A DNA stretch of 64,000 nt from a virus. Shown here one piece after another: positions 4,823-39,649 of this stretch. Both the position numbers and the translations under genes were made by a program. The stretch covers positions 1 to 64,000 of the IMG/VR virus record IMGVR_UViG_3300047472_000155. One strand, given 5' to 3'. How positions within the stretch are numbered: the stretch's first letter is position 1; every line of letters begins with the position of its first letter. The notes under the pieces are model-generated. The model was given only the letters and a program-made list of their open reading frames with translations, was not told where the DNA came from and did no database searches.

Positions 4823-7800
4823 TTATCCCTTCCAACCAAGCTTCTTTAATCCATTTACCAATCTAGTAGTAACTAAGTCAGCACCTTTTTCATCTCCCGT
4901 TACACTACCAATATTGATGTTAATGTTGCTTCCACCACTATTAGTAACCACAGAAGGAGAAATTGATGAAACAAGTTTTCCCATGTTTGGCATGAATTTG
5001 TTTTGAATGTTTGTAGAAGGAGACATTAACTCATCTTGCAAAGCTAATATCACTTGTTCGTTTGCATCAGTATTCATCATCTGATCCATAAGTTTAGTTA
5101 ATTTATTTCCACCTCCACCAACAACACCACCTTTATGAAGAACTTGAAGACCGCTCTTATCATACCAATGACCATCAGCTTTTTTAGACAATCCAATACT
5201 TGGACCCAACTTTTCGTTTAAGGCAACAAGTTCTTTTTGTCTAGCGGCAGTTGCAGTATGCCATTCTGCTGCGTTTGCTTTCATTTGTGCTACAACAGAA
5301 GCATAGCTTGACGATGTAGTTGTTGAACCGCTTGTAGAAGTAGTAGTACCTCCATACAACGCGTTTCCACTTGAATCAAGCCAAACACCAGCGCTTGTTT
5401 TTGTAGCTCCTATACTTGAACCAAGAGCTTCATTAGCGGCTTCAAGATTTTTCTTTTCTTCCGCAGTTGCACTAGCCCATTTTGCAGAGTTTGCTTGCAT
5501 TTCTGTAATAATATCTGATTCGCTTCTAATGAGTTTAAGGTTTTCAACTACCTTTTGAAGTTGAGTTGTAACATTATCATATATTGATTGACCAACAAGC
5601 GGAAGATTTGCATCAAACCATCCTTTTAAAGTTCCAAGTTCGCTTGAAATTCCTTGAATGTTGCCTTTCTCAATTTCTGCTTTAAGGTTAGACCAATGAG
5701 TTTCATCATCTGCAATGTCTTTGAAGTATTTGTTAGCACTATCTTTATAATCTTCAATGATGTCTTTCATATCATCGTAAGATTTCCCAGTTATAGTTAC
5801 CATTTGTTGAGATGTAGCATCCCAAAGTTCAACACTCATTGTCCAAGCTTCTTTATCCGCTTCTGCTTTTTCTTCTAAATAAGTTTTTTGATCTTCTAAA
5901 TCTTGTTTTTGAGCATCGGTAGAATGGTCATCTTGAAGTTTAGCAATTTCCTTGTCCGCAGCATCTCTTTGTTCGATAAGGTCTTTGAGTTGAGCCTTGC
6001 CCTCTTTGGAATCATCTAAAGATAAACGATTGATTTTATCTTGTAACTCTTGACGACTTTGCGTCTTTGTGTTCAAGCTATCTTGATATTCAGCTTCTGA
6101 CTTGTCAAATTCAAGTTGTTTGATCTTGCTTTCAATTATCTTTTGATCTGCCTTAAGCTTTTCATCAATTCTATCCATTTCTTTTTCATGAGCTTTTTCA
6201 AGTGCATCATCTTGTTCATCAATCGCATCAATGATTGCATCCTTTTGTTTCTCATACATATCCTTAAGAAGTTCGATGGCATTGTCTGCAATATTGTCAT
6301 TGAAATCTTTTAATGCATCATTGGATTGTTTAATAGCAGCTTCAATATCCCACCATTCAAGTTTCAATGCAGCAAGTTTTTGATTGTATTCTTCAACTTT
6401 TTCAATACTCAATTTGTGACTCTTTTCATTGTCTTTGAGAATTTTACGAATTGCTACAGCCTCTTCTTCCTTTTGTTTTTGAAGAGTTTCGTTTATTTTA
6501 ATTTGTTTTATCAACTCAGCTCTATACTCTTTTGATTCTTCATCATAAGTACTCAATCTTGCAGATGATAATGCCAATTCAGCGTTTGTGCTTTCTATTC
6601 CCTTTTCATACTTATATAACGAATTATCAGCTAAATCTCCATTTAATGCATCTATTTGATCTTGCACATCTCTATATGATTGACTAAGTTCTAACGTTTT
6701 TTGAGTCAAGTCATCTGACTGAATCCCCGAATTTCTAAGATATTCAGCCTCTTCGTGCATAAGTTTTTGTTTAACTTTTAACTGCATAATTTGTTCATTT
6801 GTTTCTTTGGCATTTTTAGCAGTGTAATTAGCAGAATTTGGATCAAGTCTTGCTGCTCTATATTGAGATTGGCTTATGGCTTCATCTTTGTTTGCCAACT
6901 GATTTTCATATTGTGCCATATAACTATCAACAACGTTTCTAGCGCTAGTGAATAGTGCACTATCAACCTCAACTAATTGATCCTCAACTGATTTCTTCGC
7001 ACTATCAATGTCCTTTGAGGAAGGAGCATTTACAACTGTCGTTGTAGTACCTGTTGTTGTGGAACCTGTTTTTGTACTTGCTGAACTACTTGTAGCGTTT
7101 CCTCCTTGAGCATAACCAATAACTTTTGGAACATAGTTAAGAGTTTCGCTTTTAAAGATGTTGTCTCCAACACCACGGTTTAATTTTGCCGTATCAGCTT
7201 TTGCATTTTTTAATACGTCCCAATCTTTGCTTCCTGTAGTCTTCATAGCCCAATCGACATAACCAGGACCAGCATTATATGCCGCTAAAGCAAGATCATA
7301 AGAACCGTATTTATCATACAATTGACTAAGATATTTTGCTCCACCGTTTGCTGATTGTTGAGGATCATAAACATTTGATACACCTAATCCCTTAGCGGTT
7401 CCTGGCATTAATTGCATCAATCCTGCGGCTCCCGCACCACTCTTAGCATTAGGATTATAACTTGACTCAGCCCATGCAACAGCGTCTAATATAGATGTGT
7501 CAACACCGTTATTTGCCGCCGCTTCACTTATAATCTTTTTAATGTCTCCAGTAGACTTAGCACCAGTTCCTCCAGTATAATTTGTACTAGCAAAAGTACT
7601 TCCTCCAGATGTTGTCGTTGTTGTTGCTGCAACTAATTTGGATGGATCAGCCTTTGCTTCAAGAAGCAATGTTTTCTTTTTCTCTAAAAGTTTTACTTCT
7701 TCTGCTACCGAAGCTCTATATTCTTTAGAAGATTTAGCGTATTTACTTTGTTGTGCATGTACCTTGTCAAGAGCAGCATCAACATCATTGATAGCTCTTT

Positions 7801-28611: not shown

Positions 28612-28726
28612 AGCGGAAACTAGGAATCGAACCTAGATCATGTTTGGTATCGTGTAAATGGGTGCTGCCGCTACCCACTATACCACGCCCCTGGAGGGGG
28701 ATGTCCTGCCATTAGACGATTTCCGC
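28612..28726 (-). tRNA. Atypical tRNA-Gly-like RNA with ~45-nt extra arm
   Basis: Acceptor GCGGAAA/TTTCCGC plus U73; normal D and T arms; distorted CCCC-CTCCA-GGGG arm; long inserted hairpin. Confidence 0.7.
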
Positions 28727-36091: not shown

Positions 36092-36661
36092 TTATCTTAC
36101 ATTTGCATAACTTATAAAGTTTCTAATTTTTGAAATTGTAGTAGTACCAACACCATACTCTTTTGCCAAAGATATTCCTGTTTTCATTGAATTTCTGATG
36201 TATCTAATATCTTCTTCTGAGAACATTTTATTATGATCAGCGTCACTTTTTCTTTCTAATGATTGATAATCTATATCAGACAATATATGTTTCCATTTTT
36301 TGCCACTCCAAATATTCTTTATAGTACCTCTATCTACTCCAAATATTTTTGAAAGCTCTGTTGGAGAATTTGTAGTATTCATTCTTATACTTATTACACT
36401 TTCTTCGTCAAGCTTCGATCTTCCATTATTTATACCAATTGCACTTCTTCCTCTAGAAACTCTATCCATAACATTGTCTTGATGTGTACCAGTTTCTAGA
36501 TGATTTGGATTAATGCAGAATGAATTGTCGCACTTGTGACGAATTACAAGACCATCTTCTATCTTGTTGCCACTAAATAATTCATATATATACCTATGCA
36601 TTATTAATTGGACACCATTTCTCTCTACTTTGTAACCATGTCTCTTTTTTGCATGAGACAC
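36092..36661 (-). CDS. HNH homing endonuclease with C-terminal HTH repeats
   Basis: HRYIYE, IRHKCDNSFCINPNHLETGTHQDN, GINNGRSKL. Confidence 0.9.
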   Translation of the reverse strand: MSHAKKRHGYKVERNGVQLIMHRYIYELFSGNKIEDGLVIRHKCDNSFCINPNHLETGTHQDNVMDRVSRGRSAIGINNGRSKLDEESVISIRMNTTNSPTELSKIFGVDRGTIKNIWSGKKWKHILSDIDYQSLERKSDADHNKMFSEEDIRYIRNSMKTGISLAKEYGVGTTTISKIRNFISYANVR

Positions 36662-36988: not shown

Positions 36989-37044
36989 TTAATAAAAAGT
37001 GTACGTTACTTTTCGATTTGTTGTTTACGTACAAACAGTCCCAA

Positions 37045-37115
37045 TAGCGTGTACGGGGATCGAACCCGTGATACCGTATAGAAAGTACGGAGTCTTACCA
37101 CTTGACCAACACGCC
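37045..37115 (-). tRNA. tRNA-Glu(TTC)
   Basis: CCGTA-CTTTCTA-TACGG. Confidence 0.9.
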
Positions 37116-37171
37116 ATATTGAATAGGTTTTTTCTTCGAAAGGGAAAACCATCTAACCCTTGCACAGCGCT

Positions 37172-37419
37172 ATGCGTTTATGGAAAACTCGAAACCTTTG
37201 CATCTTATGGTAATGCAATAACCCCTCTACACATGTGGAATTGTAGTCAACCTCTGCGATCTTGGGAAGTGCAGTCACACCACTACTCTTATGGCAATAG
37301 TAGCAAACCCTACATATATGGAATGTAGCGAACCTCTAGTCTTGTGGCTGAGAACTAGTAGACCTCTTACTTTCTGGATAGTAAAGTAAACCTTGCATTT
37401 TTATGGATCTGCATAAACC
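37172..37419 (-). repeat. Tandem array of 8-9 diverged ~28-nt hairpin/pseudoknot units
   Basis: Each unit on the minus strand is GGT(T)-N2-5-stem-loop containing CCA-stem; stems differ between units but each pairs. Confidence 0.75.
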
Positions 37420-37421
37420 AA

Positions 37422-37492
37422 AGCCCTGTGACAGAATTGAACTATCGTTTGCGGGTTACAAAACCGCCGTTCTACCATTAAACTAAAAGGGC
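37422..37492 (-). tRNA. tRNA-Thr(TGT)
   Basis: GCGGT-TTTGTAA-CCCGC. Confidence 0.85.
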
Positions 37493-38246: not shown

Positions 38247-38897
38247 CTATTCCGAAACTTCAATCGTTGTTACAACATTACTTGTAGACAAGATGAAGTC
38301 ACATTCGTTTTCAAATTCTTCAATCTCGGATGTCAATTTTTCAATCAATTCTTTAAGACCTACTGGATCAATAAGTTTTGGCTTATTGTCTTTACTGAAA
38401 TTCTTTGTGATTTCCTGAATTTCAATATCTCTTCCATCTCTCTTACCATCTTTACCAAGATTGAGAATTGTTTCAATACGATGATTTAGTGCTGATTCAT
38501 AGCTGTTATTGCTATTCTCAAGAGAATTTAATACCTTGTTGTGTTGGTACTTAAGTGTGCTAAGATATGTTTTATCGTAAGAGATTGAAGTTTTACGTTC
38601 AATAACTTCTGCAACTGTATATTCTTTTCCGCTAGGGAACGTAACTACAGTAATGGCATTTGATGCAACAATTTTAGATTTAATCTCATTTCTACGTGCA
38701 ATGAGAGAATTGATCTTGTCAACAGATGCTTTCGCACTTGTCTCATATTGTTCTACTGTGATGTGACCACCAATAAGCTTGTCGCCAGTTTGAATCGTAG
38801 TCAACTGTGCCTCATTGATTGCTCTTGTAATTCTAGCATCCAACAATTTAAGTTCATTTAAAGCCCTGGTAATTGAGTAACTAATAGTCATTTGCAC
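38247..38897 (-). CDS. Coiled-coil protein, DIP1984-like family
   Basis: SITRALNELKLLDARI, IVASNAIT...YTVAEVIE, LIDP, LSTSNVVTTIEV. Confidence 0.6.
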   Translation of the reverse strand: MQMTISYSITRALNELKLLDARITRAINEAQLTTIQTGDKLIGGHITVEQYETSAKASVDKINSLIARRNEIKSKIVASNAITVVTFPSGKEYTVAEVIERKTSISYDKTYLSTLKYQHNKVLNSLENSNNSYESALNHRIETILNLGKDGKRDGRDIEIQEITKNFSKDNKPKLIDPVGLKELIEKLTSEIEEFENECDFILSTSNVVTTIEVSE

Positions 38898-39231: not shown

Positions 39232-39585
39232 AATAATGTAGTCATAGTAACCGTCCATCCTCACCTATGACACAATAGGTCGATCAATCCTATTGATCCT
39301 CACGTTAATCATTTATCTAACAACCTAATGTTGGTCTCAATGATTAACATTACCAATATAGTACCCTCCTACTACCTACTATATTGAGTAGCGGTTCACT
39401 CATGACAATATCACCACCACTTGCCCTCATAGTCCGTTGTAACGTCTCTATTCATGAGTTTCAACGTTACGCTCTTTCGGAGCTACTACGCAACATGATA
39501 AACACTAATATTATATCACTTGCATTGTGATCTCATCGGCTTATTTTATTGCCGACATTCGATATTGTGTTCATCACCTTACATA
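39232..39585 (-). ncRNA. Candidate ~350-nt multi-hairpin ncRNA
   Basis: Consensus promoter at 39590-39618, no ORF in the track, at least nine helices. Confidence 0.6.
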
Positions 39586-39649
39586 AAGAATTATATCACA
39601 CTTACAATAGAAAGTCAAGCACAATATAAAATGAAAGTAAAATTATTTT

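Follow-up and report, generated by a model that had tools for sequence, protein, structure and literature searches.

What is encoded in the roughly 300 nt that separate two tRNA genes of this phage, at a place where an earlier note on the DNA had seen a tandem array of diverged, ToxI-like pseudoknot units? The stretch analysed in the present study (the window, 64 kb in full) is the start of one single-contig virus record of 166,838 bp, the completeness of which was rated as complete by CheckV. Within this record, ARAGORN called 22 tRNA genes, which occupy the minus strand without exception and span 28.4 to 39.2 kb; around them lie genes for a PIN-PhoH protein (PhoH2), for anaerobic ribonucleotide reductase and for an HNH homing endonuclease, together with an HU-like gene. 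The best isolate match of PhoH2 was found in Brevibacillus phage Sundance (SPbeta-like) at 48% identity; no isolate phage is near, and the nearest kin of the phage are metagenomic contigs of 140-170 kb together with one Paenibacillus contig. The full stretch was contained in just one public run, a rhizosphere metagenome, which is a possible source. The locus itself is bounded by two tRNA genes, the second of which is followed by tRNA-Pro and then tRNA-Leu downstream of the array:

37422 to 37492, minus strand: tRNA-Thr (UGU), called by ARAGORN, Rfam tRNA score 56.7 bits, CCA not encoded
37044 to 37116, minus strand: tRNA-Glu (UUC), called by ARAGORN, Rfam tRNA score 57.8 bits, starting 9 nt 3' of the conserved core described below

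Read along the minus strand, the array starts 2 nt past tRNA-Thr and runs from 37419 to 37198 as eight contiguous units of 25-29 nt each, which confirms the observation from which the earlier note set out, namely that diverged units of about 28 nt stand in tandem right after tRNA-Thr. Its count of eight to nine has to be reduced to eight, the supposed ninth being the first arm (H1) of a conserved 71-nt core. Every unit follows the same plan, in which a lead of 4-7 nt that begins GGU(U) precedes a stem of 4-7 bp and a loop of 7-13 nt, and the loop carries CCA (CCCA in U6) and then mostly A. As had also been claimed, the stems vary and still pair, while the GGU and CCA stay constant; this holds for all eight units, the GGU lead being present in each and the stem sequence differing from unit to unit. 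In order of transcription the units are as follows:

37394 to 37419, minus strand: U1, GGU lead, stem of 4 bp (possibly 6 bp in an alternative pairing), CCA and then five A in the loop; poorly kept in relatives
37368 to 37392, minus strand: U2, GGUU lead, 6-bp stem, 9-nt loop with CCAG at its end; two stem pairs altered on both sides among relatives
37336 to 37364, minus strand: U3, 5-6-bp stem, GCCACAA in the loop; orthologues present in the related contigs L004 and L006
37310 to 37334, minus strand: U4, 6-bp stem, 7-nt loop; three stem pairs altered on both sides across orthologues
37282 to 37309, minus strand: U5, 5-6-bp stem, loop with GCCAUAAG; sequence identical in L006
37254 to 37281, minus strand: U6, 4-bp stem, 13-nt loop with CCCAAG; stem unchanged across three relatives
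37227 to 37252, minus strand: U7, 5-bp stem, UCCACAU in the loop; 31.3 bits with the unit covariance model
37198 to 37223, minus strand: U8, 5-7-bp stem, ACCAUAA in the loop; two stem pairs altered on both sides

Does such a series of small hairpins stand out from the rest of the genome? When both strands of the 166.8 kb were scanned for GGT, 2-5 nt, a perfect stem of at least 4 bp and a CCA-containing loop, the motif was matched 45 times genome-wide, and eight of these matches are contiguous in the array, as against a background of about 1 per 9 kb. Compared with shuffles of the same unit, the self-complementarity of the units gave a combined Fisher p of 8e-5. The array is the sole one of its kind in the 166.8-kb genome. 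Tandem Repeats Finder reported no repeat at a score of at least 30 over it, which indicates that the units are truly diverged. The folding energy of the array did not differ significantly from that of shuffles (z from -0.9 to -2.4), the hairpins being thermodynamically weak; the structure is therefore argued from the regular pattern and from covariation, not from stability. Furthermore, GG lead and CC loop are associated within hairpins (24/2/3/16, p 2e-7), which points to a module and does not show that the two pair with each other. Such a second GG:CC helix would comprise 2-3 bp at most in each unit, and it gives no covariation to test, since both of its sides are nearly invariant. There is no conserved reading frame on either strand of the element, and slipped pairing between the stems of adjacent units, as judged by inspection, reaches at most 4 bp and is inconsistent, so that it was rejected.

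The relatives of the phage allow the array to be followed through evolution. We gathered related contigs with the 216-aa protein encoded just upstream of the locus (38247-38897), and the state of the tRNA-Thr/tRNA-Glu site in each, together with the identity of this protein to that of the window, is given below:

L004/L005, 92%: array present between tRNA-Thr and tRNA-Glu
L006, 80%: array likewise present there
L009/L010, 62%: array present there too
L011, 63%: two units only
L007, L013 and L042, 57-63%: array absent, tRNA-Glu comes right after tRNA-Thr
L033, 50%: one hairpin with the loop motif of the array, just before tRNA-Glu

Across the relatives the copy number of the units accordingly ranges from none, through one or two, to about 4 to 11, with 8 in the window phage, and each genome examined has one copy of the element. 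Since the array is present in some close kin and absent from others at a fixed site, the element is an accessory insert of variable copy number.

Where the array is present, its stems carry compensatory changes. In a four-way alignment of the element (window, L004, L006 and L009), to which the structure of the window sequence was applied, 83% of the cells pair, compared with 38-51% when the partners are slid; 9 of the 63 modelled pairs are altered on both sides, a number that averaged 4.3 +/- 1.5 in shuffles and that none of 500 shuffles reached. The GGU and CCA motifs are retained in nearly all units of the four phages. Structural conservation in related phages, the absence of which the earlier note had named as refuting its reading, was thus found in L004, L006 and L009, and for the core also in L016 and L030. 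The structured-RNA array that it described is upheld in its covarying stems and conserved single-stranded motifs; what it overlooked is the conserved junction and pseudoknot at the end of the array. In two further contigs, L012 and L030, possible diverged arrays with a GGUU-hairpin pattern were noticed by eye, with a looser loop motif (CCU in place of CCA in L012); their self-complementarity is not above chance, and for that reason they were left out of the evidence.

This conserved 3' part is a core of 71 nt, which the RNAalifold consensus folds into a four-way junction closed by a pseudoknot:

37126 to 37196, minus strand: the whole core, predicted four-way junction with pseudoknot
37194-37189 with 37139-37134, minus strand: P1, 4-6 bp
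37188-37176, minus strand: H1, 4 bp, a unit-like hairpin with a CCA loop
37175-37162, minus strand: H2, 5 bp, apical GCGC
37161-37140, minus strand: H3, 5 bp, 12-nt loop
37150-37145 (end of the H3 loop) with 37131-37126 (3' tail), minus strand: pseudoknot

In the consensus fold the junction has no unpaired base, the stems are of 6, 4, 5 and 5 bp, the loops of 5, 4 and 12 nt, and junction and pseudoknot together amount to 24 bp. At the end of the loop of H3, six bases directly adjoin the 3' strand of this helix and pair with the tail that follows P1; H3 and the pseudoknot helix make up a classical H-type pseudoknot. What had been taken for a hairpin at 37126-37150 is this pseudoknot helix. In the sequences compared, the predicted pseudoknot exists in three compensating versions: GGUUUU/AAAACC in the window, L006 and L009, CGAUUU/AAAUCG in L004, and CACUUU/AAAGUG in L016.

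A covariance model of the core, built from the four orthologues (window, L004, L006 and L009), matched L016 at 39.7 bits (E 5e-9), just before tRNA-Gly and preceded by about four GGU-hairpin units, and L030 at 25.7 bits (E 1.5e-4), where no downstream tRNA adjoins it. Both of these copies lie beside tRNAs other than those of the window site, and GGU-hairpin units precede both. The covariance-model search of phage genomes that the earlier note had proposed was consequently fruitful for the core, with these two copies, and not for the unit, the model of which found no second array in the five genomes searched (the window phage and four others). In the resulting six-sequence alignment of the core, which was fitted to the model by a procedure favouring pairing and comes from one phage lineage, 94% of the cells are paired and 9 of 18 pairs are altered on both sides, a result that none of 500 shuffles reached; covariation is seen in all four helices. 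The H2 stem is fully replaced in L016 with its GCGC loop retained, and a U-G pair in H2 is invariant. No other part of the element is as well conserved or as well supported as the core.

The identities to the relatives point in the same direction:

Core: 88, 94 and 92% to L004, L006 and L009
Units U5-U8: 95% to L004, 92% to L006 and 58% to L009
Units U1-U4: 74 and 68%, with compensatory changes present
Gene of the 216-aa protein: 91, 78 and 68% to L004, L006 and L009
PhoH2 gene: 79 and 68% to L006 and L009
tRNA-Glu: 72, 80 and 70% to L004, L006 and L009

Being more identical than the neighbouring coding DNA, the core and the 3' units are under stronger constraint, and these comparisons argue that purifying selection acts on the core and on U5-U8.

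How far does the element extend beyond this lineage? When blastn was run with the window, L012 and L016 elements on 50,697 phage records, and with the window element also on 72,556 plasmid records, it returned the flanking tRNAs only. Wider databases (IMG/VR, GTDB and JGI) were searched by exact patterns: a scan for the invariant core in IMG/VR yielded only a relative already known, that of the GTDB genomes gave 11 unrelated chance matches, and those of the JGI metagenomes gave 0 and then 64 matches, which we regard as chance since all of them score at most 22 bits with the core model. Six sequences from one phage lineage underlie the comparisons. So far the range is narrow and takes in a few uncultured phages, kin of the Paenibacillus-type SPbeta-like phages.

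With regard to expression, all tRNAs and genes in the array's half of the window are on the minus strand, promoters close to the consensus are found at 39618, 39211 and 39067, upstream of the array, and there is no notable promoter or terminator between tRNA-Thr and tRNA-Glu. The common strand and the uninterrupted interval suggest that the element would be transcribed together with the flanking tRNAs. As the tRNAs have no encoded CCA, its 5' end would presumably be released by an RNase Z cut after the CCA-less tRNA-Thr, and its 3' end may be produced by an RNase P cut at the presumed site before tRNA-Glu. Among the public runs, the sequence is listed for DNA metagenomes and for no RNA run. 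Outside the reference sequence, 14 G-U pairs stand against 10 A-C pairs, a count that leaves the strand undecided; the predicted pseudoknot and the invariant U-G pair of H2 fit an RNA of the minus strand.

We propose, with a probability of about 0.5, that the minus strand between about 37420 and 37117 encodes, as a gene placed inside a tRNA operon, a non-coding RNA some 300 nt long that is made up of the hairpin array and the core. That the element is a selected, structured RNA is very likely. It represents an RNA family that has no match in Rfam and that we did not find described in the literature searched: over the window, Rfam 15 at the gathering score reported tRNAs only, and when three short sub-regions were searched at E up to 10, there was no match to ToxI, other antitoxins, preQ1, ROOL, GOLLD, tRNA or ribozymes. 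The papers searched on tandem hairpins in phage tRNA clusters do not describe the element; about 10,000 candidate viral structured RNAs are catalogued elsewhere (PMC10690425). The best chance-level match, to wcaG RNA (RF01761) over U3-U6, was rejected, since its 16.9 bits (E 0.48) stand against a gathering threshold of 42 and the likeness is that of GGUUU-stem-loop-stem only.

Could the element instead be nothing but a cis-acting piece of the tRNA precursor, such as a spacer, a folding insulator, or a processing or stability signal, that does nothing in trans? Its place is precisely between two tRNAs, only 2 nt after tRNA-Thr, the two units of L011 and the one hairpin of L033 sit at the same junction, and the array-less kin, with tRNA-Thr next to tRNA-Glu, presumably still make both tRNAs, all of which would suit such a role. 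The core speaks against it. It is conserved above tRNA-Glu itself, it stands beside tRNA-Gly in L016 and has no downstream tRNA next to it in L030, 80 nt separate the element from tRNA-Glu in L004, and 24 bp of junction and pseudoknot far exceed the need of a spacer. We consider this explanation unlikely.

The properties of the core raise the further thought that the core alone is functional, whether by binding a ligand, by catalysis, by tRNA mimicry or by self-assembly, and that the array is an accessory appendage to it. The core is indeed the best-conserved part and the one common to the distant copies; its stems and its size of 71 nt are tRNA-like, and H3 and the pseudoknot abut without a gap, so that together they could form an 11-bp helix resembling an acceptor/T arm. 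Nevertheless, as a tRNA or tRNA-like gene the core is uncalled by ARAGORN, its 94-nt region has no Rfam tRNA match at E up to 10, its loops of 5, 4 and 12 nt do not go with its tRNA-like stem lengths, no ribozyme or riboswitch model scores, and a CCA end is not encoded. Alternatively, the apical loop of H2 might dimerise, as it is self-complementary in both versions found, GCGC and GUAC, and as ROOL, GOLLD and OLE self-assemble (PMC12286853); this palindrome rests on one independent case, with a chance of about 1 in 16. Kissing of the H1 and H3 loops was rejected, their complementarity being lost in L004 and in L016. Taken as a whole, a function of the core alone is decidedly unlikely.

The earlier note had read the array as an orphan type III antitoxin mimic of the ToxI/AbiQ kind, the mini-pseudoknot units of which would neutralise a ToxN-type endoribonuclease of the host. 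There are likenesses to type III antitoxins and to the pseudo-ToxI of phage phiTE, namely the tandem short units in a phage (for the phiTE case, PMC3475682), an A-rich tract in every loop, of the kind preferred by ToxN-type enzymes, and the joint occurrence of GG lead and CC loop, for which an H-type pseudoknot is sterically possible; RNA mimicry also has a precedent among phages (PMC5086642, PMC3475682). Type III antitoxins are, however, laid out as near-identical repeats followed by a Rho-independent terminator and an endoribonuclease toxin gene (PMC5086642), and all three of these are missing here. The units are 25-29 nt long and all different, unlike the near-identical units of 34-45 nt in known antitoxins, which are highly selective for one toxin; no terminator is present and tRNA-Glu follows; the ToxN family (PF13958) has zero matches in the whole 166.8-kb genome, which bears out the statement of the earlier note that no ToxN-like gene is adjacent; and the comparison with the Rfam antitoxin models, ToxI among them, gave zero matches at E up to 10. 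Membership among the type III antitoxins (ToxI, antiQ, CptI or TenpI) therefore fails. The mimic reading meets the further difficulties that a second helix of just 2-3 bp makes covariation impossible and that the conserved core is left unexplained, and it is very unlikely in our judgement. The preQ1-I riboswitch, a mini H-type pseudoknot with an A-rich tail that is topologically like the units, was likewise discarded, as a search at E up to 10 gave no match to its Rfam model.

That the unit loops mimic a CCA end, an anticodon loop or a T-loop was put aside for misfits of spacing and sequence, and the possible array of L012 has CCU; antisense targeting was rejected, the complement of the loop heptamer being neither enriched in the genome nor placed at real gene starts.

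It might also be supposed that a hairpin at the tRNA-Thr/tRNA-Glu junction was multiplied by replication slippage and that the array is a neutral relic without a selected function. The variable copy number of the units, the identity of only 68-74% between the 5' units and those of relatives, and the outer pairs that many stems have in common, which suggest recent common descent of the units, agree with an origin of this kind. Against it, the stems have diverged and remain complementary, U5-U8 are conserved above coding DNA, and in four phages hardly any unit lacks GGU or CCA, all of which make a neutral array highly improbable. Least probable of all is a function at the DNA level or on the plus strand (iterons, single-strand DNA hairpins, or the plus-strand CsrA sponge raised in the earlier note), for although hairpins in DNA would form equally on both strands, the pair counts leave the strand undecided and GGA would be read in about 60% of the plus loops, the units are spaced at anything between 25 and 30 bp and so lack helical phasing, variable stems with conserved loops misfit recognition of double-strand DNA, CsrA requires GGA at every site (the minus loops carry CCA), all genes and tRNAs here have the plus strand as their antisense, with no convincing promoter on it, and the G-U pair and pseudoknot of the core make sense only for an RNA of the minus strand.

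Coming back to a dedicated structured RNA of about 300 nt, we tentatively suggest multivalent binding, or action as a decoy, as its mechanism. In such a case, the 5' array would be the variable part, with about 2 to 11 modules in the relatives and stems free to change, and each module would display its GGU lead and its CC(A)-A-rich loop; the repeated modules may be equivalent binding sites by which many copies of one partner are held, the partner being possibly a host or phage RNA-binding protein or nuclease, and the core could supply stability, a further specific contact, or self-association. Multivalent binding would be the most likely mode given the repeated equivalent modules, the free stems and the fixed single-stranded motifs, as in sponge RNAs. 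The sponge RNAs CsrB and RsmZ consist of many hairpins with variable stems that present the same short single-stranded motif and capture one RNA-binding protein multivalently. The array of the window resembles them in presenting constant single-stranded motifs on variable-stem hairpins, and differs in its motif (GGU and CC(A)-A-rich, not GGA, so that a link to CsrA is not evident), in being embedded in a tRNA operon and in ending in a junction-pseudoknot core. None of the neighbouring genes points to a partner protein, and the neighbouring proteins have zero matches in PADLOC. Of the reading that the earlier note gave, an antitoxin mimic or a protein sponge, the sponge is the best remaining guess on account of the repeated modules with fixed motifs, and the antitoxin part falls away: the RNA is probably a multivalent binding platform, and it is not a ToxI-type antitoxin. 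The interpretation of that note is thereby partly supported.

Phage tRNA islands counter host defences that attack tRNAs. A more specific version, which we regard as unlikely, would see the tRNA-sized, pseudoknot-locked junction (a possible tRNA mimic or self-associating core) and the expandable mini-hairpins as one multivalent decoy, that is, RNA-based counter-defence in a tRNA island. The RNA freed from the tRNA precursor would then tie up a host factor that targets tRNA or RNA, for instance a defence nuclease or a processing enzyme; presence in some close kin and absence from others is the pattern expected of an accessory or counter-defence function.

Among known phage RNAs, two non-tRNA species from the tRNA cluster of phage T4, species 1 and 2 (RNA C and D), are stable and derive from the tRNA precursor through the tRNA-processing enzymes. 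The element is likewise a non-tRNA RNA encoded among phage tRNA genes; the T4 species are not hairpin arrays. In plant viruses of the TMV type, the 3' end has several pseudoknots in a row and, after them, a tRNA-like structure that is itself pseudoknotted. By analogy only, the element also passes from a chain of modules to a tRNA-sized domain, in which the 3' tail pairs with a hairpin loop and extends a helix; unlike the TMV end it has no 3' CCA and nothing to suggest aminoacylation, and virus type, host and sequence all differ.

By context, the closest known kind is the group of ROOL and GOLLD, with neither of which homology is found; both are structured RNAs of unsolved function that often occur near tRNA islands in phages of Gram-positive bacteria, and GOLLD combines a conserved 3' part with a variable 5' part (PMC12286853). 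The element shares the context, being inside the 22-tRNA island of a complete phage record, and membership is not thereby established. Its length of about 300 nt contrasts with 580-800 nt or more in ROOL and GOLLD, the Rfam models of which are unmatched, and in place of their ornate multi-pseudoknot architecture its 5' part is a tandem series of like hairpins.

The element is thus a compact addition to the RNAs of phage tRNA islands, about 300 nt long and modular, with a small core of 24 covarying base pairs, and it lends itself to direct study. If the modules prove to be binding sites, it would be a sponge or decoy RNA that tRNA-processing enzymes produce; a core acting alone would offer a new small RNA fold for structural study.

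Variation in the array of GGU-led hairpin units was evident in L004, a related phage contig, where about 80 extra bases (1736-1815) lie between the junction core (the four-way junction with its pseudoknot) and tRNA-Glu and hold three more such units; therefore, units can be added either 5' or 3' of the core. By eye, possible diverged arrays of GGUU-led hairpins, without statistical support, are also visible in the relatives L012 (6700-6925, at the tRNA-Thr/tRNA-Glu site, as in the window phage) and L030 (1100-1290), with loop motifs that are CCUUAA-like, not CCAUAA-like.

Directly upstream of the array in L009, another related contig, the counterpart of tRNA-Thr (7383-7458) has a 12-nt anticodon loop and received no ARAGORN call; possibly this tRNA has been remodelled or serves as a decoy. 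In the window, 28612-28726 on the minus strand matched the Rfam tRNA model (39.5 bits, spanning 115 nt), again with no ARAGORN call, and resembles a tRNA-like gene interrupted by a long insert. Protein genes of the window's tRNA island include:

38247-38897, minus strand, 216-aa protein, at the head of the island
36092-36661, minus strand, HNH homing endonuclease (HNH_3 + HTH), inside the island

Genes similar to the latter occupy other island positions in relatives. The 216-aa protein, in which no Pfam domain was found, is labelled phrog_1491 'tail fiber protein' by PHROGs and was matched by tblastn in 731 phage records, including Salmonella, Escherichia and Bacillus phages and phage G, as well as in Clostridium plasmid-prophages. 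In nearly all of the relatives collected, the gene lies ahead of the tRNA island (in loci L030-L032 it lies within the island), which makes the PHROGs label look doubtful and a function connected with tRNAs possible.

The window has three sigma-70 promoters close to consensus, each with an extended -10 (11-12 of 12 positions matching):

39618-39590, minus strand
39211-39183, minus strand
39067-39039, minus strand

Downstream of the first, 39232-39589 contains no convincing ORF and may code for another RNA.

In related phages, ARAGORN placed a tRNA with anticodon CUA (named 'Pyl' by the program) or UUA directly after tRNA-His:

L011, 5194-5269
L012, 5207-5283
L013, 5120-5193
L015, 5785-5859
L016, 5127-5199
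L042, 1451-1522

Neither the window phage nor its closest relatives have such a tRNA. These tRNAs are of suppressor type, which suggests stop-codon read-through or recoding in the phages that carry them.
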